A stretch of 63,729 bases of DNA from a virus (taxonomy: Duplodnaviria > Caudoviricetes), in IMG/VR virus record IMGVR_UViG_3300032316_001298, positions 1 through 63,729 of that record; one strand, given 5' to 3'. Under the pieces are notes generated by a model. It saw nothing but the letters and a program-made list of their open reading frames with translations, was not told the origin of the DNA and did no database searches. This document shows positions 3,618 through 34,461 of this stretch, piece after piece; within the stretch, counting starts at the first letter, position 1, and each line of letters opens with the position of its first letter. A program made the position numbers and the translations under genes.

Positions 3618-3860
3618 GCAGCGAGCGACTGGGTAGAAATCTATGCGACCTACAGCGCGGGGGAGTTGGCGGCCGAGATTGATGCTTTGAAGAAGCTGGC
3701 GACGCCGCTTTCGTCGCAACAGATCGGGAGCAAGAGCTATACCAAGGACTTGAGAGAGGTGCGGGACCGGCTGCAGGCGGCGAACCGGGTGCTGCGGACG
3801 CGGAATGCGAGCGCGGCGGATTACACGGCGGTGGCGGACTTTTCGAGGATTGAGTTCTGA
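3615..3860 (+). CDS. lambda gpW-like head completion protein
   Basis: 81 aa immediately before the portal, helix-hairpin (QIGSKSYTK)-helix pattern. Confidence 0.6.
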   Translation: MAASDWVEIYATYSAGELAAEIDALKKLATPLSSQQIGSKSYTKDLREVRDRLQAANRVLRTRNASAADYTAVADFSRIEF

Positions 3861-5617
3861 TGGATCCCAAAATCACATTTCTGGACAAGGCGATTGCCGC
3901 CGTCTCGCCGGAGGCGGGGCTGCGGAGAATGGTGTCGAAACACTGGCTGCAAGAGTTTGAGCGGGGGGACTGGAACAAGGAGCAGCGCGGGTTTTCGGGC
4001 GGCAAGACGCGGCAGGGATCGCCGGAAACGCAGCGCAAGCAACGTCAGCGGATCAATCGGATCTGGGAAGCGCGGGACATGGAGGAGAAGTTCTGCTTCA
4101 TCCGTGGGGTGCTGGAGAAGCTGACGCAATACACGTGCGGGGCGATCACGTATCAGAGTCGCACGGGGGATTCGGACATCGACCAAGAATACCAGGACTA
4201 TTTCCATGATTGGTGCGGGCGGGCGGATTTGACGGGTCGATTCCGGCTGGCCGAGCTGGTGCAGTTGGGCTTTCGGGCCACGGCGCGGGATGGAGAATAC
4301 GGGTGGATCGTGATTCCCGATGGGGATGAGATCCGCTTGCAGCCGATCGAGGCCGACCGGATCGGCGGGCCGGATCAGGTGAGGGCGGAGGAGCGCAACG
4401 TAAACGGCATCCTCTTGGATGACTTGGGCCGCGTGGCGGGCTACGAGATTTACAAGCGGTCGCGCATGGCGCAATACACCAAAGAGACGTTCGATTTCGG
4501 GCTGGGCGCGGGCGTGGTGCCGCCGGAGATGTTTTTGCATTTGTTCCGGCCGACGCGGGCGGATCAATACCACGGGGATAGCTGGCTTTCGCCGCTGTTG
4601 CCGCACGCGCGGGACATTCATGAGTTGTTCGGCTTCGAGAAAATGGCCATGAAGTTTGCGGCGGCGTTTGCGGGCTTCATCCGGCGCAAAGATAGCGCCC
4701 CGACCGGCAGCGGGTTGGATTGGATGACCAAGACCGGCTCAACGAGCGGGCCGAATGCTTTCGAGGTGCAGGCGGGAATGGTCAAAAGGTTGCAAGAGGG
4801 CGAAGAAATCACCTTCCCCGGCAGCACGGGCCGCCCCTCCGGAAACCTGATTCAGTTTGTGGAAATCCTGATCCGCGAGATGGCCTTGGGGCTGAATTTG
4901 CCCTTTGGGTTTTGCTACAATATGGCGCTTTTGGGCGGGGTGACGGCCAGAATCGAGGTGATGCAGGCATGGCGGACGATCCAGCAATACCAGCATTTGC
5001 TCGTGGACAAGGTGTTGAACAAAGTGCGCGATCTGGTGCTGGAGCGGGCCATTGCCATGGGCAAGATCACGCCGCATCCGCTCTGGCAGGCGGGAGCATG
5101 GAATTTCGGCGCGCGGCTGACGGGCGACACCGGCAACTATGTGCAGGAGCAGATGCTTTTGCTGCAGAACGGCATTATTCCGCGCGGCAAGGTGATCGAG
5201 GAGATCGACGGATCGAGCAATATGGAGGTGGCGCGGACGCTGGCCCGCGAGGTCAAGCAGTTGCAGGAAGTCGCGGCGGAATCGGTCGTGCCGATCGAAC
5301 TAATCGTGCCGAGCATGGCCAACGCTACGCAAATGTTGGCGGCGATCAATATGCCTCCGGAAATGCCGCCGCCTCCGGTCAAGGGCTTGGTTGGCAAGGT
5401 CGGGGAAAAGACCGCCGCGCAACTGATCGACGTTTTGACGGCTTATGCCGAGGGCAAGTTGGAGCGGGAGAGCGCCATCGCAAGCCTTGTCTATGTCTAT
5501 GGGGTGCCACGGGCCAAGGCGGAGTCGCTGGTTCCGGAGAAGCGCCCGCAAGTGGAGCAAAGCAATGGAAGCGGAAATTCAAACAGCGGAAACGTCCGAG
5601 CAGACGGCGATGAATGA
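3860..5617 (+). CDS. portal protein, lambda family, with C-terminal extension
   Basis: LDKAIAAVSP N-terminus, RDGE, LQPIEADRI, NGILLDDLGRVAGYEI, HLFRPTRADQYHG motifs. Confidence 0.92.
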   Translation: MDPKITFLDKAIAAVSPEAGLRRMVSKHWLQEFERGDWNKEQRGFSGGKTRQGSPETQRKQRQRINRIWEARDMEEKFCFIRGVLEKLTQYTCGAITYQSRTGDSDIDQEYQDYFHDWCGRADLTGRFRLAELVQLGFRATARDGEYGWIVIPDGDEIRLQPIEADRIGGPDQVRAEERNVNGILLDDLGRVAGYEIYKRSRMAQYTKETFDFGLGAGVVPPEMFLHLFRPTRADQYHGDSWLSPLLPHARDIHELFGFEKMAMKFAAAFAGFIRRKDSAPTGSGLDWMTKTGSTSGPNAFEVQAGMVKRLQEGEEITFPGSTGRPSGNLIQFVEILIREMALGLNLPFGFCYNMALLGGVTARIEVMQAWRTIQQYQHLLVDKVLNKVRDLVLERAIAMGKITPHPLWQAGAWNFGARLTGDTGNYVQEQMLLLQNGIIPRGKVIEEIDGSSNMEVARTLAREVKQLQEVAAESVVPIELIVPSMANATQMLAAINMPPEMPPPPVKGLVGKVGEKTAAQLIDVLTAYAEGKLERESAIASLVYVYGVPRAKAESLVPEKRPQVEQSNGSGNSNSGNVRADGDE

Positions 5618-5741
5618 GTTGCAGTCCCTTGTGGACCGCGCCGACCGCCTGACGATGGATCTGGCCATTGCGCGTCGTGATTTGCAGCAGCTTCGCAATG
5701 GGATGCAGATGTTTATTCACAGGTGGGGGCAAGCGGTATGA
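5610..5741 (+). CDS. 43 aa ORF, possibly the frameshifted N-terminal leader of the next gene
   Basis: MNELQSLVDRADRLTMDLAIARR...; one extra G in G5 (5725-5729) would fuse it to 5738. Confidence 0.5.
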   Translation: MNELQSLVDRADRLTMDLAIARRDLQQLRNGMQMFIHRWGQAV

Positions 5742-8700
5742 ACGAACTAACTCCATTAGCAAAATCGGTCTGGCGCCATTACTATGGGAAGCTGAAGAAG
5801 CAGACGCGGGGTGGGAAATTGGGCAACCAGTTAGACGGCTATCTTCCGGGAGACAAGAATGCGTCGAAGCTGGGGGTGCTGTATCGCGGGACGAACCATC
5901 AGGAGGTGGAGAAGTTGGCGCAGGGGCGGTTCAAGTCATCGTGGACGAGTCCTGGCATTTTTCGAGGATCGCCTGACCGCAAGGCAACATGGGTAGCATC
6001 TAGTCCGCAATATGCGGCAACTTATGCGGTGACGGCCGCCCAATCGCGCATTGTCGCGTTAACGCCCGCAGTCTTAAAGCGTCGGGACAAAGGCGTGAGT
6101 GCGAGGATGGGGGAAACAACCATGACCGCTCCGATTCGAGGCGGTATCGGCCAAAAAGAAGTGCGTGGGCTACTCAAGGGGGAGGCTTTTTCACCGCAAC
6201 GGTGGAATACGCGCGGCATCAAAAAATGGAAGCCAGTTCCCTTGGGCGAGATTCAGAAGAAGCAGTTTTCCATGCACGAGTTCGGCAGCACGGGAATCAA
6301 GCGGTTGTTGCGGCGGAAGTTGGGGATGTTGAAAAGAGGAATCTACATTGAAACGCCCAAAGGGTCGCCATCCCTTCGCTTAGATCCGGGATCAACGATG
6401 ATGATGGTCTCAAAAAATGACCGCGCTCCTTGGCGGGTTGCACGCCAAAAGATTGATTACAAGACTAATAGGGCGTCGGAACAGATTTTCAAAAAGAGCG
6501 GGCGGAAAGATGGCGATCCGTATTTTCGGCCGCAAGAAATCTTCGATGGCAAAGAGTATGCGATCGAAAAACGAATGAAAAGAGGGTTCAGCCGAATTGA
6601 CAGGTCGGTTGTGGCGATGAACCGCCGTGATGCGACTCCGATTGGCTATGAGGGAGGGATTCCACTGACAGGGCGGGTTCCGCGTGATCGGTATATCAAG
6701 AAGATCCGCGATGAGGACTTGGATCGGCGCGATGCAAATCTGTTTCGAGCGGGTGTGAGCGGTGCGGCAGCGGGGGCTCTGCTTGGTCGCGGCCGGATGC
6801 CGTTGAAGGCAAGGGTGGCAATCGGCGCCGGATCAGGCTTGGCGGGTGTTCTCGGAATCCGGCAAGTGACCAAGCAGCGGCGTGACCCTTACGGCGAACG
6901 TCAGCGCGGCGACAAGAAGGCGGAGAGCATTCCGGCGCTGGCCGGGTTGGGTGCTGCGGGTTATGGCGCCTACAAGATTTTGCGGAAGAAGTTCAAGATG
7001 TCGGATGGTCGGAAGGTGACGGAACTGGCCGAGATGTCGGCTGCCCAATGGAAAAAAGCTACTGCGCGTATGCCCGACGATCCGCGTCAAAAAGCGGCGG
7101 CGAAGTGGCTAAAAAAACAAGGTCACAACTCTTATGTGAATTGGGGCTGGACTGATGGAGTCCACAAAACTTACAGCAAAAACTATAAAACCGAAGGAGA
7201 TCGCCTGCTTATTCATGAGGAAGATGGCAAACTGAACGTGCGCCGTGCGGGGGACGACAAGCTGGTCGCTTCATTTTCGTCCATCGAGTTTGCCGAGAAG
7301 AAGCGGCAGATGAACCCTTACGTGATGGCGGGTTTGTCGGGTGCGGCATCCGGTGCGGCATTGGGAATTTTGCCTTTGCTCCGTCGCGGTGTCGGATTCA
7401 AGACGGCTTTGCGCACGGCGGCGGGAGGTGCGGCGGCGGGCGGAACGATTGTCGGCGGTGGGTCTTTGCTCGGCAGCGCGATTTTGGGCGATCCTGACAA
7501 GAAGGAAGGGGCGGCTTTTACCAAGCGCGCGGCCGTGGGCGGCGCGATTGTCGGCGGGACGCTGGGAGTGGCCGGTGGCCTTGTGGCGCGGCGGGTTCCG
7601 GTGGTTCGTAAACAGGTTGGCAAATTGGCTAAAGAATGGCGTCCGGCCCAGTGGATCAAGAATTCGGGGCCGGTCAAAGCCGCAGCTATCGGCGGTGTGG
7701 CGGGTGGTGCTTATGGAGCCGGGACCGGCGCGGATGAAGGCCAGCAGGTCGATAGTATCCGAAATATCCGCAAGGATCTGAAGCGGATGCATGGGCTTTC
7801 GAGCCGGATCAAAGATTTCACATTCGAGATGTCGAAGGATTGGCGGGACATGCGGCGGGAGTCGCGCAGTGAGGCGGCGAAAGATGTTCTTTCGGGATCG
7901 GGGGTTTTGGCGGCGGGAGCCGGAGTTGGCGCGGGGGTTGGCTATGCCGGTTGGCGCGCGGGCAAGGCGCTGAATCAGGTCGGTGCCGTGGCAGACGATG
8001 CGCGCAAGGCGACTCGCGGGGCGCGGGTGGCAAGTGCGCGAATTACACGCGCTTCGCGCTGGATCAAGCGGCAACTGACCACGTTCCCGACGTTCCGCAA
8101 ATTCCGGGCCTTCCATGCTTCTGGGCAGCTCGTGGAGTTGGAGAAACCATTTCACGGCTACAACAAGAAGCGACACGCCAAGAGCGGCGGTCTGAATGAC
8201 AGCTTTCGCGCGAAATACAACCGCGAGCACGGGAGCAATCTGAAAAGGCCAGTGACCAAAGATCCGAGCAAGCTCAAGCCGGGAAGCAAAGCGGCCAAGC
8301 GCCGTGCATCTTTCTGTGCGCGCATGAGCGGGATGCAGGGGCCGACGAGCAAGGATGGCAAGCTGACGCCGAAGGGCGCGGCGCTCAAGCGGTGGAATTG
8401 TTCGGCCAAACAGGAACTTATCGAGATGAACGACAAAACCTATCGACCTGGCTCCACGGCGGAGATGCGGAGTATGAAAATGACTCCGGCAATCAAAGAA
8501 GTTCTGAAGAAGGAAAACTCGCGTGGTGCGATGGCGCAGAAGTTGCGGACGCTGATGAAGGTGCTGCCTTTTGAGGCGCGGTATGAATTTCAGACCATGG
8601 CGCCGATGAATCCGGTTTATGATGAGCGCGAGCGGCTGAAGCAGCAGTTGCTTGTCACCGGCGCGGTGGCGACACCGGTGGCCGGTGTAGGCTATGCAGG

Positions 8701-9859
8701 CTGGCGGTCCTTGCGGAAGTCGGCCAAGGCGATGCAGACGGAAGAGGCGCGGATGAAGCTGGGCCAGCAGTTACGAGCCGAGCGCCGTGCTTCGATGTCG
8801 GTGGGCGGCAAGGTGAACAACGCGCGGTTTGGTCCGAAGGGGCCGATTGCGCGTGAGCCGTTGCCGATCCGTAAATCCATGCAGCCGGATACGCTGGAGA
8901 GGAATCAGGCGACGAACAAGGCGATGGCCATGGGCAAGCGGTATGAGTCGGAGATCAAGAGTCGCTACCGAGCGGGCAGTAAGATGAAGATGGTGCACAG
9001 TCGCGGCGAGCGTAAGGCGATGAGGGCAACCTTGGCCATGTTGCGGACGAAATACAAATTTGCCCGCAAGGGTGCGGTGCATCAGTTCGCCATCTATGCG
9101 CGCGATGAGGAGACGGGGCGCGCGGCGGGGTTCTATGATTACGTGCAGGGGCGTTCGCTGACGCGGAAGAATCCGGTAACGGGCCGCGTCGAGGCGGCAC
9201 CGATCACCACGGGGGCATTCATCAGTGCGGCTCGTCGCAAGGCGGAGGAATACAACCGGACGCGCAAGCGCGGCATGGGGTTGGTGCGCGATGTCTCGGA
9301 AGTGTCGCAAGGTAAGAAAACCAAGAAGCGCGAGTGGGAGAAGAGTTGGTTCCAGAACAAGCTGCAGACGGCAGCGGGCGCAGCGGCTTTACTGGGCGCG
9401 GGTGTGGTCTATCGCAAGGGCGGGCTGCGTTCGGCTCCGAATTGGGCCAAGTCGTTCCGGCGCGGGACGGACGCGACGATCTCCCGTGCGCAAAATCTAC
9501 GGGCCACGGCGGAGGACCGCTTGGGCAAGATCATGGGTCTATCGGCCCGACTGAAGAACTCGGTGCAGATGTTCGATATGTATCAGGATTACTACAGCGC
9601 GCCGGGTTGGGATTTGCGCGATGCGCGTGGCAACAGCGCGCGGGTGTTTTCACCGAAGGCGAGGAAGCGGATGCGGCGCTCGGCGGAGTGGTATGAGAAG
9701 AAGGAGGGTCAGCGGAACATTTTGGGCGGACTGGCTGTGGCCGGAACGGTGGCGGGCACGGCGGGCGGATTGCTGGTCGGGCGCCGAATCTGGAAGCCGA
9801 AGGCGAAAGTCAAAATTGCCGAAAACGTGCTGAAAGGGCCGTGGAAAAAGAGGGCGTAG
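5738..9859 (+). CDS. giant basic modular protein (putative internal head polyprotein: ART-like, Gly-rich membrane hairpins, DUF6321-like modules)
   Basis: ~1370 aa, K/R-rich, between portal and protease. LYRG..WVASSPQYAATYA module; GGLN..NLKRPV..RRASFCARM..LKRWNC module; repeated linkers. Confidence 0.7.
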   Translation: MNELTPLAKSVWRHYYGKLKKQTRGGKLGNQLDGYLPGDKNASKLGVLYRGTNHQEVEKLAQGRFKSSWTSPGIFRGSPDRKATWVASSPQYAATYAVTAAQSRIVALTPAVLKRRDKGVSARMGETTMTAPIRGGIGQKEVRGLLKGEAFSPQRWNTRGIKKWKPVPLGEIQKKQFSMHEFGSTGIKRLLRRKLGMLKRGIYIETPKGSPSLRLDPGSTMMMVSKNDRAPWRVARQKIDYKTNRASEQIFKKSGRKDGDPYFRPQEIFDGKEYAIEKRMKRGFSRIDRSVVAMNRRDATPIGYEGGIPLTGRVPRDRYIKKIRDEDLDRRDANLFRAGVSGAAAGALLGRGRMPLKARVAIGAGSGLAGVLGIRQVTKQRRDPYGERQRGDKKAESIPALAGLGAAGYGAYKILRKKFKMSDGRKVTELAEMSAAQWKKATARMPDDPRQKAAAKWLKKQGHNSYVNWGWTDGVHKTYSKNYKTEGDRLLIHEEDGKLNVRRAGDDKLVASFSSIEFAEKKRQMNPYVMAGLSGAASGAALGILPLLRRGVGFKTALRTAAGGAAAGGTIVGGGSLLGSAILGDPDKKEGAAFTKRAAVGGAIVGGTLGVAGGLVARRVPVVRKQVGKLAKEWRPAQWIKNSGPVKAAAIGGVAGGAYGAGTGADEGQQVDSIRNIRKDLKRMHGLSSRIKDFTFEMSKDWRDMRRESRSEAAKDVLSGSGVLAAGAGVGAGVGYAGWRAGKALNQVGAVADDARKATRGARVASARITRASRWIKRQLTTFPTFRKFRAFHASGQLVELEKPFHGYNKKRHAKSGGLNDSFRAKYNREHGSNLKRPVTKDPSKLKPGSKAAKRRASFCARMSGMQGPTSKDGKLTPKGAALKRWNCSAKQELIEMNDKTYRPGSTAEMRSMKMTPAIKEVLKKENSRGAMAQKLRTLMKVLPFEARYEFQTMAPMNPVYDERERLKQQLLVTGAVATPVAGVGYAGWRSLRKSAKAMQTEEARMKLGQQLRAERRASMSVGGKVNNARFGPKGPIAREPLPIRKSMQPDTLERNQATNKAMAMGKRYESEIKSRYRAGSKMKMVHSRGERKAMRATLAMLRTKYKFARKGAVHQFAIYARDEETGRAAGFYDYVQGRSLTRKNPVTGRVEAAPITTGAFISAARRKAEEYNRTRKRGMGLVRDVSEVSQGKKTKKREWEKSWFQNKLQTAAGAAALLGAGVVYRKGGLRSAPNWAKSFRRGTDATISRAQNLRATAEDRLGKIMGLSARLKNSVQMFDMYQDYYSAPGWDLRDARGNSARVFSPKARKRMRRSAEWYEKKEGQRNILGGLAVAGTVAGTAGGLLVGRRIWKPKAKVKIAENVLKGPWKKRA

Positions 9860-9881
9860 AATTGACTGAACCAACACACTT

Positions 9882-10565
9882 ATGAACGAGATCAAGAAGA
9901 AGCTGGTGGCTTTGGAGGCCAAAGTGGATGCGAAACTTTTCAATGTGATGCGCGGTCCGGATGGCAAGTGGTATCGAGAAGATGGCACGGAGGCCAACTC
10001 GGTGGGTGACTTTAAGTCGGCGAAGGGCGCGGCCGTGGCAGTCGGTGCGGCTGGTGCTGGTTTGGGTGCTTTGGCGGGCGATCGCGCGCTCATGAACCGC
10101 TACGGCGGCGGCGGAAGCGGGATGCAAACTCGTATGGCCGCTTTGCGCAGCGCGGGTCGTGATGCGATGGAGACAGGCCGTTTTTACGGTGGCAAAGCGA
10201 TTGATGCCGGAAATGATGGGTTCCGTGCTGGTCAGCGTTCGTTTCGGGCGACCAAGCCGGGAGCAATCGGCAACAAGTCGGGCAGCATGGGGCTTTTTGG
10301 GCGTTTGCGTAAAGCCTTGGGAACCGGAGCGCGCATTGCGACCGGAGGTCGCTTGAGGTTCGGGGCGGAGATCAAGCAGCGGTTGGTGGAAATGTCCTCG
10401 CAGGTTCAAAAAGCCGACGCGCGCAAAATGAACGAGTACAAGGCTATGTATTTGAAGAATCAGAATGCGGAGAAAGCCGCCAAAGCAGGCAAAAAAGCGG
10501 CGAAGATTACTCCCGAATTTCAGAGGGCGGTCTTCCGTGCGGTCTTTGGCAAAGCAAGGCTATGA
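9882..10565 (+). CDS. basic Gly-rich putative internal virion protein
   Basis: Own TTGACT element, Gly-rich hydrophobic segment, linker FGAEIKQRLVEM. Confidence 0.6.
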   Translation: MNEIKKKLVALEAKVDAKLFNVMRGPDGKWYREDGTEANSVGDFKSAKGAAVAVGAAGAGLGALAGDRALMNRYGGGGSGMQTRMAALRSAGRDAMETGRFYGGKAIDAGNDGFRAGQRSFRATKPGAIGNKSGSMGLFGRLRKALGTGARIATGGRLRFGAEIKQRLVEMSSQVQKADARKMNEYKAMYLKNQNAEKAAKAGKKAAKITPEFQRAVFRAVFGKARL

Positions 10566-11221
10566 AAAAGCGCAAAAAAGGCCGGTGCTGGCGGGGGTGT
10601 AAGCCGGTTCCCGGCAAGAAGGCTTACAGCGAGGGGAGCTGCACGTGCAATATGTCCGCGCTTCCCGGCACGGTTGAGCTTATGCGCGGGGACTTTGCCA
10701 TTCCGGCATTGAAGCGGGCGCTAAAGCGCGGGGTTGGCAATGCGGGAGAGCCAGTTTCGATCCACGAGATCGGCGTGTCGGGCACGATGATTCCTTCGCT
10801 GCGAAAGAATCCGGCCAATGTGCAGCGCGCGACCAAGAAGTATTGGGGCGAGGACGAGGGGCTGGGTCAAGCCACGGCGGCGATGCGCTACAATCGGGAC
10901 TGGGCGGCGAAGACAATCAGGGAGAGTCGAAAAAATGACCGCTATCGGCGTGATGTGAGAGATAACTTACCGGACTTGGAGTATTTGACCCGCGGACTGC
11001 GACTGGCGGCGCTGGCGCCAGGCATGATCGAGTTTGCCGATTCGCGGCCGCGTAATGATATGGGCCAGTATATGGCCAATGAGACGGGTGGGGCCGATCC
11101 GAATTCGATGGCGGCGGCCTATGGGAATGTGGAGCAGGAAAAAATCATTCGTCGCCGCAGTTTGGTGCAGCGGATGAAGGCGATGATGGGACGTAACGAT
11201 CAGCAGCCTGTGATGCAATGA
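10562..11221 (+). CDS. basic modular putative internal virion protein
   Basis: CWRGCKPVPGKKAYSEGSC module, linkers MSALPGTVEL and LAALAPGMIEF, RPRNDMGQY motif. Confidence 0.6.
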   Translation: MKKRKKGRCWRGCKPVPGKKAYSEGSCTCNMSALPGTVELMRGDFAIPALKRALKRGVGNAGEPVSIHEIGVSGTMIPSLRKNPANVQRATKKYWGEDEGLGQATAAMRYNRDWAAKTIRESRKNDRYRRDVRDNLPDLEYLTRGLRLAALAPGMIEFADSRPRNDMGQYMANETGGADPNSMAAAYGNVEQEKIIRRRSLVQRMKAMMGRNDQQPVMQ

Positions 11222-11550
11222 ATGTGACGGATGATCAAGCTCACCAAATCGCGCATCATGTGGCCCATCACGACAAGGAGTTGGAGCGCCACAGTCAGTC
11301 TTTGCGGCGGATTGGGGATTCACTGGAAAGCCTGCAACGGGAGTGCCACGAGATACGTGTGACCTTGCGGGAGCGCGACCAGACGACGAAGTTCCTCAAG
11401 GCGACTTTCAATTCGATTCTTGTTGCGGTGGTCATTCAGTTGGCCGCAACGGTGTGGTGGGCAGCCAAGATGGATGCGGCGGTGCAGGCGATGACGCATA
11501 CGGTGTCGGACCATGAGGAGCGGTTGCGGTCGCAAGAGCGGGTGCCATAA
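11218..11550 (+). CDS. coiled-coil protein with one TM segment
   Basis: Hydrophobic stretch FNSILVAVVIQLAATVWWAA flanked by coiled coils. Confidence 0.65.
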   Translation: MNVTDDQAHQIAHHVAHHDKELERHSQSLRRIGDSLESLQRECHEIRVTLRERDQTTKFLKATFNSILVAVVIQLAATVWWAAKMDAAVQAMTHTVSDHEERLRSQERVP

Positions 11551-11586
11551 GTAGCGCCCGCGCCTTTGACAAGGCCGCCGAGTTGT

Positions 11587-12873
11587 ATGAACAACTCGGT
11601 TTTTTCTTTTGCCACCCGCGGCCTTTCGGGGCGGGTGGATCGTGAGGCAGGCATTATTCGTGGCGCGGCGGTGATCACGGGCGGGGTGACGGCGCGCGGT
11701 CATGACCTGGAGGTGGATGACAAGACGCTCGAGCAGATTGTGACCTGTGGCAATGCCAAGGGGAGGGTGCAGGTAAAGCTCAATCACAAGGATCCGCAGG
11801 CGTTGCAGAGCATTTGCGGATACTTGGAGGGTTTTAGAAGGGAGGGCGACAAGGTGGTGGCGGATTGGCACCTCTTAAAGTCGCACGAGGAATACGACAA
11901 GTTGATGGAGAGAGCGGAGCGTATGCCGGATTGCTTCGGGCTATCGGCGGCTTTCGCCGGTCCTCCGCAGGGCGAGAAAGTGAAAGGCGGGAAGAAAGCG
12001 GCGCGGTGCGAAGAACTCCTAGCCGTCGACTGCGTGGCAATGCCCGCAGCGAACCCGCAGGGGCTTTTTGAGGACAAGCGAGTGGTTGACACACCGCACG
12101 AGGAAAATTCTATGGATAAGAACCAGCAGAACCAGCAGGAGCCGACGATCGCTGATGTGCTCGCCGCGCTGAATGAACTCAAGGAGACCGTTACCGATGT
12201 CTCCAATCGTCAGGCCGAGATCGACGCTTTGATCGAGGCTAACACCCCGATCACCGCCGAGGAGCTGCAAGAGCTGGCTTCGATGAGCGATGCAGAATTG
12301 GCTGATCAGGGCATCAGCCGCGACGAGGTCAACGAAGCCATCGAGGCTTACAATGCCGCGATCGAAGCCGAAGCCGGTGAAGGCGCCGTCGAAGGCGAAG
12401 GTCAAGAGGCTGGTGAAGGTGAGACTGCTGCTGCTCCGGCCGGTGCCGCGAGCGGCGAGGGCGCTTCTTTCAGCGAACTGCGCAAGCGCGTGGTCGAACT
12501 GGAAAGCCAACTCAGCCAGAAAGCGGAGGACACGGAGAAGGCCGAGGTCATGCACGCTTTCGACGTTCTCGAAGCGAAGATGACCGCGCTGACCGCGCAG
12601 AATGACGCTTTGCAGCGCACGATCCGCCTGCAGGGGATCAAGGCCGCAACTCCGGGGACCGAGAGCCTTCGCATGTTCAACGCGCCGGAAGGCGACGAGA
12701 AGGTGACTGAATTTGACCGGCTGGTCAGCACGAAAGCGACCGAGCTGGAGGGAAAGGGGCAGAGCAAGACGGTGGCCCGTGCCAACGCGATCCGTTTTGC
12801 GATGAAGGACAACCCGCGCGCTTACGCCGAGCACAACGCCGCTCGCGGAATCGTGAAACTCGCTGACGCCTAA
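11587..12873 (+). CDS. prohead protease-scaffold fusion (likely internal scaffold start at 12112)
   Basis: Protease-like N-half (ARGHD, VKLNH, FGLSAAF, VDCVAMPAANPQGLF), acidic coiled-coil C-half; TTGACA at 12086 and GAGG precede an in-frame ATG at 12112. Confidence 0.8.
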   Translation: MNNSVFSFATRGLSGRVDREAGIIRGAAVITGGVTARGHDLEVDDKTLEQIVTCGNAKGRVQVKLNHKDPQALQSICGYLEGFRREGDKVVADWHLLKSHEEYDKLMERAERMPDCFGLSAAFAGPPQGEKVKGGKKAARCEELLAVDCVAMPAANPQGLFEDKRVVDTPHEENSMDKNQQNQQEPTIADVLAALNELKETVTDVSNRQAEIDALIEANTPITAEELQELASMSDAELADQGISRDEVNEAIEAYNAAIEAEAGEGAVEGEGQEAGEGETAAAPAGAASGEGASFSELRKRVVELESQLSQKAEDTEKAEVMHAFDVLEAKMTALTAQNDALQRTIRLQGIKAATPGTESLRMFNAPEGDEKVTEFDRLVSTKATELEGKGQSKTVARANAIRFAMKDNPRAYAEHNAARGIVKLADA

Positions 12874-12893: not shown

Positions 12894-13250
12894 ATGGCAA
12901 ACATCAGAGACAATTCAGACAGCTTCGTGGCGGCGAGTTCGTCTGGGATCGCGGGTGACATCCGCGTGAAACTCAACAGCAGCCGCAAACTGGAAGTGGC
13001 CGGTGCCTCCGACATCGAAATCGGTGTGACCGACTACGCAACAAAGGATGCAACCACCCCGGTCAAAGTCAATCTGACCAACGGTGGCGGCAGCTTCGAT
13101 GTGGTGGCGGGTGATGCGGTGGCCATCGGTGCCATCGTGAAGCGCGCCGCCAACGGCAAAGTCACAACCGGCGGAGCCGGTGCGAACTTCGGCATTGCGC
13201 TGGGTTCGGCCGCAGCAGACGGCGATGTGATCGAGGTTTACCCGCTCTAA
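12894..13250 (+). CDS. head decoration / capsid cement protein (DUF2190-like)
   Basis: 118 aa Ala/Gly-rich, GIALGSAAADGDVIEV, between scaffold and capsid, strong RBS. Confidence 0.8.
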   Translation: MANIRDNSDSFVAASSSGIAGDIRVKLNSSRKLEVAGASDIEIGVTDYATKDATTPVKVNLTNGGGSFDVVAGDAVAIGAIVKRAANGKVTTGGAGANFGIALGSAAADGDVIEVYPL

Positions 13251-13268: not shown

Positions 13269-14249
13269 ATGTATACAAACACAGACGCAGTAATTCGCCC
13301 CGAACTCCAAACGGTGGTGCAAGAGGCTTTGGAAGCTGAAAAGTTTTTCATCGCTGACAAAATTTTCACGCCCTTCGGCGTGTCGACCAACACGGGCGAG
13401 TATCGCAAGATCCTCAAGGGGACCGGCAATATCCTTGCCACGACCTCGAGCGACATCACGCTGCGCGCTCCGCGCACGGCTTACAAAGAAGTCGATCGCA
13501 CCTACTCCAAGGCTTCGTTTGCCTGCCAAGACCGCGGCTTGACCGAAGTTGTCGATGACAGCACTCAGGCCGATCTGCAGCGTTTCTTCGACGCGGAAAG
13601 CGTCTCGACCCGCTTGTTGCTGGCCAACATCCTCCGCGCGCAAGAAAAGCGTGTGGCGGCCAAGGTGATGAACGAGTCGATCTGGGGCAAAGCTGACGCT
13701 GCGGTGGCCTACACCGACGCGAACTTGGCCACGATCGACGTTGCCACCGACGTTGAGGAAGCCATCGCCCGCGTTCACAAGCGCCAGGAATCGGTCAACA
13801 CCATCGTGATGAGCCGTAACATTTGGAAGCGTGTTCGTCGCAGCACCAAGCTCCGCGAATACATCTTCGGTGGAGACAGCGGCGGCAAGATCGTGACGAA
13901 GGACATCTTCCTGTCGATCTTCCAAGACAGCGCTCCGATCACTCAGCTTTTCATCGCGGAAGCGACGGAGAGCACAGCGGCAAAGAACACGACAGTGGCG
14001 GACAACAAGTTGTCCTACCTCTGGGGCGACGATTACATCTGGCTGGGCAACGTGCAAGCGGGTGCCCCAGAGATGGGCGGCGCCGGCCGTATCTTCTACT
14101 GGCAAGAGGACGCCGAGTTCATGTATGTCGTCGAAAGCTATCGTGACGAACCCCGCCGCAGCAATGTGGTCCGTGTTCGCCAGAACAACGACGAGCATGT
14201 GGTTAACGAGTGCGCAGGCACTTTGATCAAGACGGGCTACACGGCCTAA
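13269..14249 (+). CDS. major capsid protein
   Basis: 326 aa, position, AGGAGG RBS, followed by a terminator. Confidence 0.88.
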   Translation: MYTNTDAVIRPELQTVVQEALEAEKFFIADKIFTPFGVSTNTGEYRKILKGTGNILATTSSDITLRAPRTAYKEVDRTYSKASFACQDRGLTEVVDDSTQADLQRFFDAESVSTRLLLANILRAQEKRVAAKVMNESIWGKADAAVAYTDANLATIDVATDVEEAIARVHKRQESVNTIVMSRNIWKRVRRSTKLREYIFGGDSGGKIVTKDIFLSIFQDSAPITQLFIAEATESTAAKNTTVADNKLSYLWGDDYIWLGNVQAGAPEMGGAGRIFYWQEDAEFMYVVESYRDEPRRSNVVRVRQNNDEHVVNECAGTLIKTGYTA

Positions 14250-15234: not shown

Positions 15235-16239
15235 ATGCCCAAAGAGAACTGGGGAGCGATTGCGCGGGAGAGCGCAGAGCACGCACATCGTAGCGTGGTG
15301 TCGGATTACAAGCGGCAAATCACGGCCGGGTTGGAACGGATCAAAGAACTGGAGGAGCAGCTAGGGGTGGTAGACGCGCTGAATGCGGCCAAGCCCTCGC
15401 AGAAGCCGTTGGCGGTTAAAAAGACGGCGAAGTGTCAGGCGGTGGCGGTGGCTTTGGCGAGTGACTGGCACGTGGAGGAGCCGGTGACGGCGGATTCGAC
15501 CAATGGACTGAATCATTTTGACCTGCGCGTGGCGGAGGCCCGGATCGAGAAGTTTTTTAACAGTGTGGTGCGGCTCACGGAGATCGAGCGCAACGGTGCG
15601 GAGATCGACACGTGCCTGTTGTTTTTGGGCGGCGACCTGATGAGTGGATATATCCATGAAGAGCTGGCGGAGACGAATGCGCTGAGTCCGACGGAGACGA
15701 TTTTGTGGGTGATGGAGCGGGTCTCGCGGGGGATCGCCTTGTTGCGGCAGAATTTTTCGCGGGTCTTGATTCCGTGTTGCTACGGCAACCATGGGCGGAC
15801 CACGAAGAAGCCGAGGCATGCCACGGGGTTTCGCAACAGCTACGAATGGTTGCTCTACAAGGTGATGTCGCAGCGGGTGCAGGACGGGGTGGAGTGGCAG
15901 GTGGCGGATTCGTATTTCAATTACGTGGATCTGTTTGGCAAGACGTTGCGGTTTCACCACGGGGACGGGTTGAAGTATCAGGGCGGCATCGGCGGGCTGA
16001 CCATCCCGACGGAGAAGGCGATTGCCTCGTGGAACAAGGCACGCGTGGCGGATCTGGATTGTTTCGGGCACTGGCACACGCAACAGCAGAATCCGAAGTG
16101 GGTGAGCAATGGCTCGCTGATCGGCTACAATGCTTACGCGATCAGCATCAAGGCGTCCTATGAGCCGCCGCAGCAGACATATTTTCTCTTCGACTCGAAG
16201 AGAGGGCGCACGATCACAGCGCCGATTGTTTTAGCATGA
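15235..16239 (+). CDS. calcineurin-like metallophosphoesterase
   Basis: SDWH, GGDLMSG, GNHG, HHGD, GHWH motifs. Confidence 0.88.
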   Translation: MPKENWGAIARESAEHAHRSVVSDYKRQITAGLERIKELEEQLGVVDALNAAKPSQKPLAVKKTAKCQAVAVALASDWHVEEPVTADSTNGLNHFDLRVAEARIEKFFNSVVRLTEIERNGAEIDTCLLFLGGDLMSGYIHEELAETNALSPTETILWVMERVSRGIALLRQNFSRVLIPCCYGNHGRTTKKPRHATGFRNSYEWLLYKVMSQRVQDGVEWQVADSYFNYVDLFGKTLRFHHGDGLKYQGGIGGLTIPTEKAIASWNKARVADLDCFGHWHTQQQNPKWVSNGSLIGYNAYAISIKASYEPPQQTYFLFDSKRGRTITAPIVLA

Positions 16240-16673: not shown

Positions 16674-17117
16674 ATGGCCCTTCGAATGGTAGCGCGACCG
16701 GAGAAATGCCCGCCTTGGGTGGCGGATCTCATTGTTGATCTGGATACGAGGTGTTTTCCGGAGGATTACCGCGTGAAGCCGGAGGGGGCTTACTGGTGGA
16801 TCGAAGAGGAGCGGGGCGAGCCGGTGGCGTTTGCCGGAATGAAGGTGTGCGCTGCGGAATACAATCGCGGGCTAGGCTATCTATCGCGGGCGGGGGTGCT
16901 GCCGAAGTATCGGGGGCAGGGACGGCAGCGGCGGCTGATCCGCGCGCGGATAGCTTTGGCGCGACGGCTGAACTTACTGGAGGTCGTGACGTATGTGGTG
17001 GCGGCGAATCTGGCGAGTGCGAACAGTCTGATCGGCGTGGGCTTTCGGCTTTACAGTCCGGCAGAGCGCTGGGGCGGGAAGGATGCGTTGTATTTCCGGC
17101 GGCGGCTGGGAGGTTGA
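16674..17117 (+). CDS. GNAT family acetyltransferase
   Basis: VLPKYRGQGRQRRLI and NLASANSLIGVGF motifs. Confidence 0.88.
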   Translation: MALRMVARPEKCPPWVADLIVDLDTRCFPEDYRVKPEGAYWWIEEERGEPVAFAGMKVCAAEYNRGLGYLSRAGVLPKYRGQGRQRRLIRARIALARRLNLLEVVTYVVAANLASANSLIGVGFRLYSPAERWGGKDALYFRRRLGG

Positions 17118-23435: not shown

Positions 23436-26174
23436 GTGCGCTCCTTGTATTATGCCAATTTGCAGACCCGGCGCCCGGCCAGCAGTATAGGGGGTGGCGA
23501 AGTCACCATTCCTAGTCTGCTGGCCGGACAACAGTGGCAGATTGCGCTTCGCTTTACCGATGCTGCGGATGGGCAGTTCGGAGAGATCCGTCCCCCGGTG
23601 CGAAGTTTGCGGGCCTCGCTTGGACCGCTGGATGCGCGCCCGGCAGCGGGTAGTTTTCGGTTGCAGGTAGGTTTGGGGAATTCGACAAGTGCTAATACGA
23701 CAGCAGCCTTGGCTGCCAATGCCACGGCAGTGCAGGTGGCGGCGGCGCTGAATGGTTTGGCGGGCGCGGGCGGAGACTATTCCGTGGATTTCGATGCTGG
23801 ATCTTACCTGATCCGGCGCGCTGGCGGGCAGATGGTGACTTTGACCTCGAGGCAGAATGTCTTGAGTCCGATCAGCGCGGTGCGAGTGAGGCCTTATCAA
23901 GTGGATGGCGCCTGGGTGCACGAGGTGCGCTTAATCCAAGCGCCTTATGCTTTTGCCGACAATGCGGCGCAAGCATTACCGACACCACCTTTCGTGCAGA
24001 CGCTGGTGGATGGCTACACTTCGCCGGACAATACGTGGAAGATCAACGAGGTGCAGCAGTTGATCTTACCAGCGGAGTTCCGGTCTACTTACCGGCTGAC
24101 TTTCAATTATGCAGGCGGCGTGGCCAACACGGGGTTGCCGCGCAAAACGCGGGTGCTGGGGATCGAGGATGGCGCCGCGGAGTTGCAGGCGGCGATCAAT
24201 GACATTCTCAAGGATTTGGGGGGCTACGACGGCGAGGTGGCGGTGGCCAACCCAACCAGCAATGTGGCGCGCATCACTTTTGGCGGCAGAGCTTTGGACG
24301 GTGTCGATGTGCCGCCTTTGGGGGTGGAGGCGTTTCCGTTGCCGGGCGACGAGGGGGATTGGGTATTCACGTTAGACTTAAATCGCTCCGAGATGTGGGT
24401 GGCGCTGCGCGGGGCAGAATCGGTGACTGTGCCTTTCGAGGTGGAGGCGGATGTCTATATCGACCGGAACGATTTGAGTCAGGGGTGGACGACGATCAAG
24501 CTCTGGAGCGTGCCTGTGACAGTGACGCGGCCGTTGCTTTATGAGGGCCTAGCGGCGGCCCAGTCCATTGATTGGCTAAGGCCGATTTCGCCTCGCTCGT
24601 ATGTGCCGTTCAACCCCGACCAGATCATAACCGGTCAGCAGCATTGGGTGGGGACGATCGGGTTTGGCACGGCCAACAGTCCGGCTTATGGCACTGCGGT
24701 GAGCGTTGGTTTTGGCACGGCAGGTGGGGAGCAGATTTTCACGATCGACCATGATCTCAATACCGAGGCAGTGCATGTGACGGTGCGAGAAAATGAAGCG
24801 CCTGGAGACATCGTTTCGCCGAAACGGGTGAGCGTGGATGGACCGAATAGTGTCTCTGTGGCCTTCGGCAGCGCCTTATCGAGCGGTGATGTTTACGGGG
24901 TGGTGATCACGAGCGCGGGCCCGCGGAGTGTGTTCTTGGGGCACACGCACACGACGGCGCAAGTGACGGGGTTGGAGGAAATCATCGGGGCATTGGCCGA
25001 GCGCGTGCTGGCACTGGAGCGGCTGTTGCCGAGGAGTGGTGCAACGGAGAGCGGGATAAGTGATAAACCGGCTGAGACGTTGCTTCCGTGCGTTGGGGAA
25101 GTGTTGCCCGATTTAAGCGCGTTGGATTTCCGATTGCCCACCGTGGCAAGCCAAACCTTTGCCAGTCCAAATCAGGGAAGCCCGGCATCGGAACAGCTAA
25201 ACCTAATTCCCAAAGCGCCGGAGGGAACGTCCGCGGCGCAACAGGAGAAGCAGGCGGAGGACGAAAAGGCCAAGCAAAAGGAGGATCCGGATGCGATGCC
25301 GCCGAATTTGTTGCTGCGCGCGTTGATTCCGGGCGTGGGAAGCACTGGCAAGCCCGCTCGCCCAGGGGGCAAAAACAATGAGGGAGAGGTTGTTCCAGAG
25401 GTGCCCGAAGCGCCCGCCACCCCGGCGCTTTTCCCGCCCCGCCGTGGATCAAAAATGCCGGTCTTGCTGCAAGCAGTGCAGAGTTCGGCGCCGGTCAATA
25501 CGTCAGTGTTGCCCACGGGCACGGCGTTGGTCGATGGCAGGGTGTATCGCTACACGGGCAGCGAGGAGTTTTTCGTGCCGGGCGATCTGGGGAGGCCGAC
25601 TCTGAAGCTGCCGTCGCAGGGCGTGTTCGCCTACAAGCAGGGGCAGTTTTACCGAGTGCGAAGTGAGGGTGGCAGTGTGTATTATCCGGTGGAGTTCGAG
25701 CGCGAGCTGTGGCGCGTGCATCTTTCGGCACAGCAGATGCCAGAGGGGGCAACGCTGACGATCGGGGGGGAACTGAGGTATCGCCTCTTGGGAGAGTTTT
25801 TCGATGCGGTGCTGTCCAAGCAAGCGCCGCTGGATTTGGCCGCGCAATACATGCTCTACGTCGAGGCGTTGGAGTTGGAGGAGGGTGGGGCGCTAGGTGC
25901 GGTGAAGCGCACAACTACTCTGGCGGCAACACAGGTGATCGTTTCGCCCGTGCTGGAATCCTTCCGCTGGAGGCTGGCGGTAACACGGGACGCGTCGGGG
26001 CTGGCTTCGAGTTTCACGGCCTTTTCGACGACCACTTCGGCAAGTGGATTCTCCGCGCCGTTCATTTTGCGGATGCGTTTGGGCGGCTTTGACATCGACG
26101 ACATGGCGTCGGATGTGGTGAGGGGCCAAGTGGCTCTGATTATGCCCCCGACCCGGGCAGAGGTAGCACTATGA
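23436..26174 (+). CDS. large tail/baseplate structural protein
   Basis: 912 aa, beta-rich, NATAVQVAAALN repeats, preceded by a TTGACA element. Confidence 0.7.
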   Translation: MRSLYYANLQTRRPASSIGGGEVTIPSLLAGQQWQIALRFTDAADGQFGEIRPPVRSLRASLGPLDARPAAGSFRLQVGLGNSTSANTTAALAANATAVQVAAALNGLAGAGGDYSVDFDAGSYLIRRAGGQMVTLTSRQNVLSPISAVRVRPYQVDGAWVHEVRLIQAPYAFADNAAQALPTPPFVQTLVDGYTSPDNTWKINEVQQLILPAEFRSTYRLTFNYAGGVANTGLPRKTRVLGIEDGAAELQAAINDILKDLGGYDGEVAVANPTSNVARITFGGRALDGVDVPPLGVEAFPLPGDEGDWVFTLDLNRSEMWVALRGAESVTVPFEVEADVYIDRNDLSQGWTTIKLWSVPVTVTRPLLYEGLAAAQSIDWLRPISPRSYVPFNPDQIITGQQHWVGTIGFGTANSPAYGTAVSVGFGTAGGEQIFTIDHDLNTEAVHVTVRENEAPGDIVSPKRVSVDGPNSVSVAFGSALSSGDVYGVVITSAGPRSVFLGHTHTTAQVTGLEEIIGALAERVLALERLLPRSGATESGISDKPAETLLPCVGEVLPDLSALDFRLPTVASQTFASPNQGSPASEQLNLIPKAPEGTSAAQQEKQAEDEKAKQKEDPDAMPPNLLLRALIPGVGSTGKPARPGGKNNEGEVVPEVPEAPATPALFPPRRGSKMPVLLQAVQSSAPVNTSVLPTGTALVDGRVYRYTGSEEFFVPGDLGRPTLKLPSQGVFAYKQGQFYRVRSEGGSVYYPVEFERELWRVHLSAQQMPEGATLTIGGELRYRLLGEFFDAVLSKQAPLDLAAQYMLYVEALELEEGGALGAVKRTTTLAATQVIVSPVLESFRWRLAVTRDASGLASSFTAFSTTTSASGFSAPFILRMRLGGFDIDDMASDVVRGQVALIMPPTRAEVAL

Positions 26175-26971
26175 TTATTTCAGCGATCGAGAAGATTGAA
26201 GCATTGCCGGTGCCGCCGCTGGGCTTGCTCCCGGCATTGCACGATGCGACGTTGACGACGTTTGTCGGAACCACGCTGGTCACAGGAACAGCCGTTGCCT
26301 CCACATTGCCCAGCGCGGACCAGCATGCCAATCAAGTGTTTTTAGTCACGGTCGCGGACATTACGGCGCCGAGTTATGAGTCTTGGCCAGCGCAGACGAT
26401 TGCCAAGACCACGCATGTGGGGTCGGACGGAAGATTTTGGTATCCGGTGGTGCCTTACGGAACGACAAACACTTATTACCCGAAGGCCTTCGAGCGGACT
26501 CTTTACACGATTGCTTTTACTCCGGCGTCTTTGCCTTTGAGGCTACAATGGGAGCTACTGCGGGAATACAGCTTCCGACTTTTCAACAACAACACGGATG
26601 TGGTGTGGAATATCGTGTGGGAGTTTGGTGACAGGATTGCGGAGACATCCCCAGCCCCGGTTGGCCCGAACATCAAGGCTTACTCGTGGCGGCGGCCTCT
26701 CTTGGACGAGCAAATTCCGATCACCGATGTGCTAACCAAGAATATTTTCGGCATCAGCTTGCGTAAGATCGAATACACGCAAGCGGGAGCACCGGTGTAT
26801 GAGTCGACTATCGAGCGGTATGGGAGGCGATTGGCAGCGTCGAGCGCGCAGTTGCCTTTGACGGAAAACTTTGTCCTGCGGCTGCGCTTATCGTCGTTCG
26901 ACACCCTGGACTATGTGACGAGTCCGCGGGGTTACGTGGCCTATTTGGTCGATGCCGTTAAAGCAAAATAA
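26171..26971 (+). CDS. tail protein paralogous to the C-terminal domain of 23436..26174
   Basis: YYPKAFERTL vs YYPVEFEREL; LRLRLSSFD..RGYVA vs LRMRLGGFD..RGQVA. Confidence 0.65.
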   Translation: MIISAIEKIEALPVPPLGLLPALHDATLTTFVGTTLVTGTAVASTLPSADQHANQVFLVTVADITAPSYESWPAQTIAKTTHVGSDGRFWYPVVPYGTTNTYYPKAFERTLYTIAFTPASLPLRLQWELLREYSFRLFNNNTDVVWNIVWEFGDRIAETSPAPVGPNIKAYSWRRPLLDEQIPITDVLTKNIFGISLRKIEYTQAGAPVYESTIERYGRRLAASSAQLPLTENFVLRLRLSSFDTLDYVTSPRGYVAYLVDAVKAK

Positions 26972-33718: not shown

Positions 33719-33859
33719 ATGCGTCTCGCCGTGGCGGTTTTGTTTTTGTTCCCTCTCGCGGGCTGCGAGGGGGTGAAGGTTGGCACGGGCTATAAGTTCG
33801 ATTCGCGGGAGTTCTTCCTGCAAATCGAGCGGCCCTTGGAGCCGGGACTTAAAAAGTGA
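33719..33859 (+). CDS. small lipoprotein in lysis cassette
   Basis: Manually translated MRLAVAVLFLFPLAGC.. with LAGC lipobox; stop overlaps the endolysin GTG. Confidence 0.7.
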   Translation: MRLAVAVLFLFPLAGCEGVKVGTGYKFDSREFFLQIERPLEPGLKK

Positions 33860-34461
33860 ACGTGCTCTCATGGTTGAGGAACTTATTCGCGGGCTACGCG
33901 GCTGGCCCGAATCCGACCGCCGCGCTGTCGCTCTCGCCCTCGTCGAGCGTCTTAACCTCGGCGATCTCGCGGAAGTCTTTGCCGCTGCACACCAGCGGAT
34001 CCGGGCGGAAGCCGAGCGGCGAAGAATGGCGGGCGGACGAGAGGAGTGAGCGGAATATCGCAACCTTGGAGCCGGTGACGGCGAAGCTGGCGCGGGAGCA
34101 TTTGCGGCGTCTGGCGGATAAGGGGTTAAATTTCAAAGTGACGAGCGCCCGCCGGACATTCCAGGAGCAGGCGCGGCTATATGCAAAGGGGCGCACGGCG
34201 CCAGGACCGCGGGTGACGAATGCCCGCGCGGGGTATTCTTGGCACAATTTTGGGACGGCCTATGATTTGACGCTTTTCAGCGGTAAAAATCCTGTGTGGG
34301 ATTCCAAACACTACGATACGGCGGGGCGGATCGGGGAGGAGCTGGGCTTGGAGTGGGGGGGGCGCTGGACGAAGCTGGTGGATCGGCCCCATTTCCAGCG
34401 CAGGCTGGGGCTGACGCTGGCTGCGGCGCGCGCTAGGTATCCGCAGGGACAGGTGGGTTGA
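33856..34461 (+). CDS. endolysin, M15 family L-Ala-D-Glu-type peptidase
   Basis: R..QEQARLY..GRT, SWHNFGTAYD, LEWGGRW, DRPHFQ. Confidence 0.92.
   Translation: MNVLSWLRNLFAGYAAGPNPTAALSLSPSSSVLTSAISRKSLPLHTSGSGRKPSGEEWRADERSERNIATLEPVTAKLAREHLRRLADKGLNFKVTSARRTFQEQARLYAKGRTAPGPRVTNARAGYSWHNFGTAYDLTLFSGKNPVWDSKHYDTAGRIGEELGLEWGGRWTKLVDRPHFQRRLGLTLAAARARYPQGQVG

Follow-up and report, generated by a model that had tools for sequence, protein, structure and literature searches.

A recurring peptide linker delimits exchangeable modules in putative head polyproteins of a tailed phage

Introduction

The T4 prohead protease gp21 cleaves after Glu in short motifs (Leu/Ile-x-Glu). The T4 internal proteins (IPI–III and Alt) are a diverse cargo with only a short N-terminal tag in common, one gene and one tag for each protein, and the T4 capsid targeting sequence (CTS) is described in a passage of PMC3012670. 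Here we analyse the virus record IMGVR_UViG_3300032316_001298 (IMG/VR; Duplodnaviria, Caudoviricetes) over its whole length of 63,729 bp (the window), which is a complete phage genome with nearly all genes on the plus strand. Between its portal gene and a gene for a predicted protease-scaffold fusion it encodes a basic protein of 1,378 residues (hereafter the large protein), a chain of about 11 modules separated by copies of a short recurring linker, with further copies in two small neighbouring proteins, p227 and p219. We find that this linker is real, is located at module boundaries and is the site of cassette exchange. Our favoured reading, to which we assign a probability of roughly 55%, is that the phage's own serine prohead protease recognises and cleaves the linkers, and that the polyproteins are precursors of internal head proteins.

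The likeness to T4 lies in a short Glu-containing motif, in open reading frames (ORFs) that consist of a linker plus a module, and in a protease whose modelled fold is that of gp21 (PDB 5jbl, Z 8.4). Here, however, a single chain comprises up to 11 modules, each separated from the next by the tag, whose two anchors stand at variable distances and whose Glu is followed by a large hydrophobic residue; the protease is fused to the scaffold. In phiKZ-like jumbo phages, a gp21-like protease (SPN3US gp245, phiKZ gp175) processes many of the head proteins, with propeptides cut at several sites; for SPN3US, the available part of PMC10052503 gives a short motif ending in Glu and 14 sites in nine proteins. 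These are 240-kb myoviruses with about 50 head proteins in which, one exception aside, the cuts remove N-terminal propeptides, whereas the present locus encodes a chain of unrelated modules, and the same part of PMC10052503 does not describe exchange of cassettes at cleavage sites.

Polyvalent proteins, as set out in the available part of Iyer et al. 2017 (PMC5512222), are large multi-domain proteins encoded beside virion genes, with extensive domain shuffling and a proposed need for processing, for which a zincin metallopeptidase was put forward. The present locus has an architecture of this type, with about 11 unrelated modules between portal and protease and 80 homologs of varying architecture. 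It differs in that its modules are mostly small, basic and membrane-like rather than enzymes, and in that the large protein, p227 and p219 of this genome are without an HExxH string. Of the domains characteristic of the polyvalent class (InPase, ParB-like, NUDIX, ART, MuF and others), InPase, NUDIX and ParB are seen in relatives; the only domain recognised in this genome is DUF6321. The word 'linker' does not occur in the text of PMC5512222, and 'prohead' occurs in its reference list only.

We rate the system as a variant of the protease-processed head proteins and of the polyvalent proteins, standing with the latter by architecture and with T4 and jumbo-phage processing by its working. As the initial annotation of the window had supposed, no tailed-phage head polyprotein with a recurring inter-module tag was found described in the full-text literature searched, outside which most subscription journals lie. 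RNA-virus polyproteins, and the adenovirus core precursors that are cut in the capsid, combine one translation product, a viral protease, a short recurring site and basic DNA-associated products; the present system would work alike, without evolutionary relation, and its sites are also points of cassette exchange.

Results

Modules are gained, lost and swapped at the linkers

The large protein contains 281 Lys and Arg residues against 116 Asp and Glu, and has about eight Gly/Ala-rich hydrophobic 19-mers. Its modules are mutually unrelated, with isoelectric points (pI) of 9.4–11.6; most are very basic and many have Gly/Ala-rich membrane-like helices. The most conserved module, which ends at linker LSSRIKDFTFEM, is Gly-zipper-like with three hydrophobic 19-mers. 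The linkers follow the consensus [FLMC]-[SEA]-[AS]-x(0-8)-hydrophobic-x-[EQ, sometimes A/M/D]-[FLM], mostly span 10–11 residues and often have G or PG in the middle. All nine copies that the initial annotation listed in the large protein were recovered at exactly the positions given there, and we found two more, one at 6587 and, if translation starts at a GTG, one at 5723 (Table 1).

For comparison we assembled 17 related viral-metagenome loci, five loci from genome bins and 80 homologous proteins of 764–2,052 residues; the alignment of the large protein comprised seven homologs. All homologs are annotated as unnamed or 'hypothetical protein'. Across relatives and homologous polyproteins, linker copies are the sites at which modules have been added, removed, exchanged or moved to ORFs of their own. 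Between homologs there were 12 clean insertions of at least 25 residues, a few of which are the same cassette in different genomes. At least one end fell within a match to the motif, written as the regular expression of the initial annotation, in 10 of these 12 (null mean 2.52), and both ends did so in five (null mean 0.64); none of 5,000 permutations reached either observed value.

The 90-residue cassette that lies here between MSDGRKVTEL and FSSIEF is missing from two relatives (L004 and L006), which keep the hybrid linker MSDGR-FEF, and a 46-residue cassette of two others (L009 and L012) lies between ...LVEL and ...TEFS. Cassettes of 200–300 residues in L006 and L010 follow linkers of the LSARL..F type, at the site of LSARLKNSVQMF, and each ends in a second copy. 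The slot between F[AS]xHEF and FSRIDRSVVAM, filled here by residues 188–288, is occupied in homolog P0008 by a 190-residue module bearing HEAGH. The large protein of L010 begins at the last residue of a linker. The first module also varies between loci: that of L006 (2243–2700) contains GHEGRHR and is ParB-like by eye, and L004 is without a first module.

Pfam searches with each module of the large protein separately, at E values up to 1, returned nothing past sub-threshold noise apart from DUF6321, the sole recognised domain in this genome. In all 21 non-redundant relatives this domain stands between linkers: upstream, F or L occupies position -1 or -2 in all 21, and downstream, F, L or M lies 9–13 residues past the terminal Cys in all 21. 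The literal expression ends at most one residue from the start of the domain in 9 of 21 relatives (about 0.015 expected per site) and matches downstream in one of 21, where Cys as the first anchor is the sole cause of its failure. A linker follows InPase in all eight proteins examined, and relatives carry InPase, NUDIX and ParB in the same positions. The permutation test, the hybrid linkers and the bracketing of DUF6321 and InPase bear out the earlier proposal that the linker marks module boundaries and that modules shuffle there.

The linkers of the large protein have no DNA similarity to one another, so the constraint acts on the peptide. In a bin-derived locus whose protease is 35% identical, the pattern is kept as TTEF, TTDL, TVDF, TTDF and LIEF. 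Ahead of the final F/L/M stands Glu in the clade of the present phage, and Asp, Asn or Glu in the L021 clade. An AlphaFold model of the L004 homolog (1,038 residues, 27-row alignment) was of low confidence, with a mean predicted local distance difference test (pLDDT) of 49; all eight linkers lay in segments below pLDDT 50, against a background of 564 of 1,038 residues below 50, and seven of the eight were wholly coil, directly following helices.

Outside this group, marine T7-like cyanophages and pelagiphages carry DUF6321 as a small gene of its own (46–56% identity to residues 815–906); the searched full-text literature holds no mention of it. In another phage lineage (P0076–P0083) the domain is flanked not by this linker but by copies of x-L-E-K-[SGA] (KCSKSEELEKG, NEDLEKAKSDKPF), five LEK copies being present in P0081, and these flanks may be a lineage-specific counterpart. 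For the first module of the large protein (5750–6265, 178 residues), a search of the ESM Atlas with residues 1–185 returned unnamed viral clusters at 0.90 and one cluster at 0.88 with PARP in 16% of its members, a lead only; an impression by eye of an ADP-ribosyltransferase at this N-terminus was not supported by the result.

Linker copies in p227 and p219

A linker copy of p227 is kept in its homologs, all of which open with a conserved linker-like 20-mer, and two of which end just ahead of the linker. The copies in p219 are likewise conserved, with P153, M155 and F158 invariant in seven of seven sequences, and module content varies around them. The L012 member, of 100 residues, consists of the Cys-rich knuckle, LSALRPGMIAF and the C-terminal module, the module between the two copies being precisely missing; that of L004 has three PGMIEF copies and an extra cassette; L006_185 has only linker MDSALRPSMIEF at its start, followed directly by the C-terminal module; and in L011_353 an extra upstream module is fused to the normal p219 start through ...VVEL followed by G. 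The PGMIEF copies of this family share 17–18 identical nucleotides (CCCGGCATGATCGAGTT).

Residues 1–30 of p219 (10562–10660) carry the Cys-rich knuckle, GRCW.GCKPVPGKK.YS.GSC.C, which may bind metal. The knuckle also occurs inside very distant DUF6321 polyproteins of another phage group (P0079 and P0081, KRCW.GY...PGKKPYS.GSC), so that it is itself a mobile module. In L006 an extra ORF of 164 residues (7837–8331), SET-domain-like by eye, lies between the p219 homolog and the protease.

The neighbouring gene encodes a predicted capsid-maturation protease fused to a scaffold

The N-terminal 170 residues of the 435-residue protein are nearly invariant in nine homologs, with H46, H74, H107 and S127 invariant. 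The protein matched nothing in Pfam, and searches of PDB sequences with its profile and with its N-terminal 185 residues returned chance-level hits only. Structure comparison of the model by Foldseek returned the protease of Kaposi's sarcoma-associated herpesvirus (KSHV; E 3.9e-3) and T4 gp21 (E 4.7e-3), both at probability 0.99. VIA-align ranked T4 gp21 first (5jbl_A, Z 8.4, root-mean-square deviation 3.9 Å, 131 residues aligned to the 165-residue chain); the next eight entries were herpesvirus proteases at Z 6.0–6.2 (KSHV protease about 6.2), the top nine all being capsid maturation proteases. On this model the gene is predicted to encode a capsid-maturation protease, and T4 gp21 is the solved structure nearest to it in fold. 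The remainder of the protein was modelled as a disordered acidic spacer followed by a helix of 60 residues and a small C-terminal domain, also helical, which together with the protease-like N-terminus make it a protease-scaffold fusion.

The initial annotation had placed a protease gene beside the polyproteins and drawn an analogy with T4 and phiKZ; the gp21-like fold match and the conserved His and Ser residues agree with the former and make the latter apt. Its description of a lambda-type head holds for the portal, which belongs to the lambda family (PF05136), a feature of the lambda head module (B, C/Nu3, D, E), but not for the protease, which has the assemblin/gp21 fold in the model. The lambda C protease is of the ClpP/S49 type; no such protease was found here, the nine homologs matching no Pfam protease family, lambda C's included, at E up to 1. 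In P2 (gpO) and lambda (nested C/Nu3), one gene of similar size between the portal and the decoration/capsid genes provides an N-terminal protease and a C-terminal scaffold. Here, by contrast, four extra genes stand between portal and protease, and the protease is predicted to be assemblin/gp21-like.

Linker copies recur in the scaffold part (Table 1), and no protease other than the head protease is common to all loci examined. A complex prediction combining the protease domain (residues 18–172) with the linker-bearing C-terminal part of p219 (residues 140–212) scored 0.02 against a mark of 0.32 and, run without controls, is uninformative either way.

A cleavage model

We infer the following for packaging, for cleavage and its scissile bond, and for what becomes of the products. 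The precursors (large protein, p227 and p219; genes 5723–11221) would co-assemble with the protease-scaffold within the procapsid, the linker probably serving also as a docking handle for the protease-scaffold. The protease would then cut at or beside the Glu-[F/L/M] pair, yielding about 11 small proteins from the large protein, two from p227 and three from p219. A cut at the conserved scaffold copy (residues 370–383) would detach the scaffold from the shell, and the freed proteins would stay with the DNA and exit with it at infection. The gp21-like fold and the near-constant Glu suggest, by analogy, a cut after Glu; ORF boundaries in relatives, such as the start of the L010 protein at the last linker residue, would fit cleavage after the final F/L/M equally well. 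Since every module bears the same tag, recombination at the tags could exchange, duplicate or delete modules or transfer them between ORFs with packaging and processing retained.

A bolder version, which we place somewhat short of even odds, is that the linker is a portable 'load-and-cut' tag: affinity for the protease-scaffold would carry any module flanked by two copies into the procapsid, cleavage would free it, and a whole clade of phages would evolve its injected proteome by cassette exchange. The initial annotation foresaw the release of many small effectors. This is too strong for the present genome, where only DUF6321 is recognisable and most modules are basic, Gly/Ala-rich and membrane-like; the enzymatic modules InPase, NUDIX and ParB are found in relatives.

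The lambda portal undergoes N-terminal processing. In the present portal the N-terminal string WLQEF followed by E (residues 29–33 for WLQEF, nt 3944–3958) resembles the C-terminal anchor of the linker, with E32 and F33 invariant in seven of seven portals down to 42% identity, and is a possible N-terminal processing site.

Frequency and specificity of the motif

Using the regular expression of the initial annotation, we counted distinct ends of matches against 2,000 shuffles per protein. The large protein had 13, against 4.55 ± 2.10 expected (P = 0.001), so the motif is enriched there, although many other proteins of the genome also match the expression. In an unbiased scan of k-mers in a reduced alphabet over the large protein, p227 and p219, [FLM][VIT][EQ][FLM] ranked first of 1,037 four-mers (four observed, 0.3 expected, z 5.3). 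The protein p110, encoded between p219 and the protease-scaffold, had no match. The recurrence claimed for p227, p219 and the scaffold is upheld by conservation of the copies, although counts were not enriched in any of the four smaller proteins. A further copy, LAVLEF in the gene at 45665–46423, is unsupported, its sole basis being a match of the type found 73 times elsewhere. Frequency by itself is weak support for the linker; it is conservation and position that set the finding apart from chance, module insertions ending in linkers.

A fixed-width position matrix built from the 21 DUF6321 flanks was moderately specific, variable spacing defeating a fixed width. Three of its top seven proteome hits lie outside the polyprotein genes, in 26978–28960 (residues ~295–306, IAASARTETLFF followed by AAPAP), 26171–26971 (residues ~232–243, ENFVLRLRLSSF followed by D) and 1044–1706 (residues ~55–66, MGFSQAEELMEL followed by R), and may be further substrates or chance.

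Points against cleavage, and alternatives

Several observations weigh against cleavage by the head protease. The spacing between the anchors, 3 to 13 residues in all, is unusually variable for a protease site; in many copies Ala, Gln, Met, Phe or Asp takes the place of the penultimate Glu; and some ORFs end 3–6 residues past a linker (L006_210; L021 7601–8482). The protease assignment rests on a model with mean pLDDT 62, and none of the nine homologs of the protease-scaffold matched a Pfam protease family at E up to 1. Over the 2,000 shuffles, motif counts showed no excess in p227 (1 against 1.10 expected), p219 (2 against 0.75, P = 0.17) or the protease-scaffold (4 against 3.04, P = 0.36). 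The expression matches 73 times in 44 other ORFs and as written is therefore unspecific, with 6.0 matches per 1,000 residues there against 8.4 in the five proteins; only four of the top seven matrix hits fall in polyprotein genes, the other three being those in 26978–28960, 1044–1706 and 26171–26971. Finally, no cultured phage close to this genome was found in 50,697 phage records.

The alternative that survives best, although we think it unlikely, is that the linker is an uncleaved docking or assembly handle, a short hairpin-like peptide that would bind the scaffold, the portal, the inner capsid or other copies, so that an intact polyprotein is held by many weak contacts in the manner of encapsulin cargo peptides. 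Such a handle could stand at the extreme N- or C-end of an ORF with nothing or 3–6 residues beyond it, as some linkers do, and fits those C-terminal cases better than a cut releasing a tripeptide. It would also suit the turn residue (G or PG) often found between the two anchors, the copy conserved in the scaffold and the one near the portal N-terminus. Yet the same modules are separate ORFs in relatives and so evidently work as separate proteins, passage of a 151-kDa chain, with its eight or so membrane-like segments, through the portal in one piece would be difficult, and a protease of the fold that processes T4 head contents is encoded alongside.

We give slightly less credence to cleavage by a different protease, which could be a zincin-type (HExxH) module within the polyprotein or, after ejection, a host enzyme. 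Of 97 collected proteins, 22 contain an HExxH string, as does the polyprotein region of three of 12 loci (L006, L016 and L018), and metallopeptidase autoprocessing of polyvalent proteins is proposed in the available part of Iyer et al. 2017 (PMC5512222). Nine of the 12 loci, including this genome, nevertheless keep the linkers without any HExxH in that region, and the sole HExxH among ORFs of at least 80 residues in the window belongs to an unrelated minus-strand ORF (61402–61902). The linker copy in the scaffold favours the head protease.

That the linkers lack a biochemical role, as flexible spacers or as scars of recombination passed on by duplication, seemingly conserved through the spread of cassettes along with their flanks, we regard as improbable. 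Their predicted coil state would suit a spacer, and the nucleotides shared by the p219 PGMIEF copies suffice for microhomology-driven rearrangement. But the linkers of the large protein keep one peptide pattern despite unrelated DNA, the pattern survives to 35% protease identity and flanks unrelated domains (21 of 21 for DUF6321, 8 of 8 for InPase), and scars would hardly account for ORFs that comprise a linker and a single module. Most improbable of all is that the proteins are late membrane proteins acting in lysis timing, superinfection exclusion or assembly at the membrane, as the eight or so hydrophobic Gly/Ala-rich segments of the large protein, the single ones in p227 and p110 and a weak sub-threshold XhlA match of p110 (Pfam, E 0.008) might suggest, given that the polyprotein genes lie between portal and protease-scaffold in every locus examined, the endolysin is encoded elsewhere (33856–34461), and the InPase, ParB and NUDIX domains of relatives are typical of packaged polyvalent proteins in the available part of PMC5512222.

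Genomic context

The head genes run in the order portal, large protein, p227, p219, p110, protease-scaffold, cement protein and major capsid protein (Table 1). The usual gene after the portal encodes a MuF / SPP1 gp7 minor head protein. We rejected this identity for the large protein, for which no supporting domain is found, Pfam and PHROGs scans returning only DUF6321-type families; that of a tape-measure protein was rejected by the position of the gene between portal and protease.

Searches of the 50,697 phage records for near-identical DNA of the genome, for its major capsid protein and for its protease-scaffold gave zero matches. The large protein matched only over the DUF6321 stretch (35 records, marine podoviruses), and the portal matched at 21–26% identity only.

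The terminase gene (42727–44556) is remote from the head module; the small and large terminase genes together (42105–44556) follow primase/helicase genes and lie about 23 kb from the portal gene via the genome ends, an unusual placement. Two further genes stand amid the structural genes just after the capsid gene, one exonuclease/phosphoesterase-like (15235–16239, phrog_284, E 2.3e-39) and one for a GNAT-like acetyltransferase (16674–17117, phrog_1249, E 8e-6).

Table 1. Head-module genes, predicted domains and linker copies, in window coordinates (aa, residues of the encoding protein).
Feature	Position	Strand	Remarks
Portal protein, lambda family	3860–5617	+	Pfam PF05136, E 4.8e-40
Large protein	5723–9859	+	1,378 aa, 151.5 kDa, pI 10.8; about 11 modules joined by linkers
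Possible N-terminal linker MGASGMNEL	5723–5749	+	Uncertain, requires GTG start at 5723 (database gene call begins at ATG 5738); absent from initial annotation
Linker FSMHEF	6266–6283	+	aa 182–187; opens cassette slot aa 188–288
Linker FSRIDRSVVAM	6587–6619	+	aa 289–299; Ala for Glu; absent from initial annotation
Linker MSDGRKVTEL	6998–7027	+	aa 426–435
Linker FSSIEF	7274–7291	+	aa 518–523
Linker LSSRIKDFTFEM	7796–7831	+	aa 692–703; closes most conserved module
Linker FHASGQLVEL	8111–8140	+	aa 797–806; directly before DUF6321
DUF6321 module	8177–8395	+	aa 819–891; Pfam PF19846, E 1.1e-14
Linker CSAKQELIEM	8399–8428	+	aa 893–902; directly after DUF6321
Linker FEARYEF	8570–8590	+	aa 950–956
Linker FARKGAVHQF	9059–9088	+	aa 1113–1122
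Linker LSARLKNSVQMF	9539–9574	+	aa 1273–1284
p227	9882–10565	+	Basic, one hydrophobic segment
p227 linker LEAKVDAKLF	9912–9941	+	aa 11–20
p227 linker FGAEIKQRLVEM	10359–10394	+	aa 160–171
p219	10562–11221	+	Cys-rich knuckle, linker, module, linker, conserved C-terminal module
p219 linker MSALPGTVEL	10652–10681	+	
p219 linker LAALAPGMIEF	11003–11035	+	
p110	11218–11550	+	His-rich N-terminus, coiled coil, one transmembrane-like segment, no linker; strongly conserved across relatives
Protease-scaffold	11566–12873	+	435 aa; predicted prohead protease (aa ~20–172, nt 11623–12081), acidic spacer, coiled-coil scaffold
Scaffold linker FSELRKRVVEL	12469–12501	+	aa 302–312; start of long helix; weakly conserved, L312 invariant
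Scaffold linker MFNAPEGDEKVTEF	12673–12714	+	aa 370–383; loop before C-terminal helical domain; M370, F371 and F383 invariant in 9 of 9
Head decoration (cement) protein	12894–13250	+	Pfam PF09956, E 1.1e-5
Major capsid protein	13269–14249	+	phrog_1005, E 2.2e-29

Discussion

If the linkers are cut as proposed, a genuine polyprotein strategy for head contents would be within the reach of tailed phages, in which a single short tag both delimits and mobilises cargo modules. The proposal predicts about 16 defined cleavage products from three genes. It would provide a rule by which the mature internal and ejection proteins of uncultured phages could be predicted from sequence, would explain the processing of polyvalent proteins that have no metallopeptidase domain, and would offer a natural template for loading chosen proteins into capsids.

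Contigs that carry relatives of the protease-scaffold fall into bins together with Chthoniobacter, Verrucomicrobiaceae, Spartobacteria, another Verrucomicrobiota genome and a Planctomycetaceae genome. This binning suggests hosts in the Planctomycetes–Verrucomicrobia–Chlamydiae (PVC) group, probably Verrucomicrobiota and Planctomycetota. Under the cleavage reading, small basic membrane-active proteins, together with enzymes and other domains such as InPase, ParB, NUDIX and DUF6321, would be delivered into these little-studied bacteria. Should the linker prove to be a portable load-and-cut tag, the system would be to tailed phages what the polyprotein is to RNA viruses, with modularity built in.

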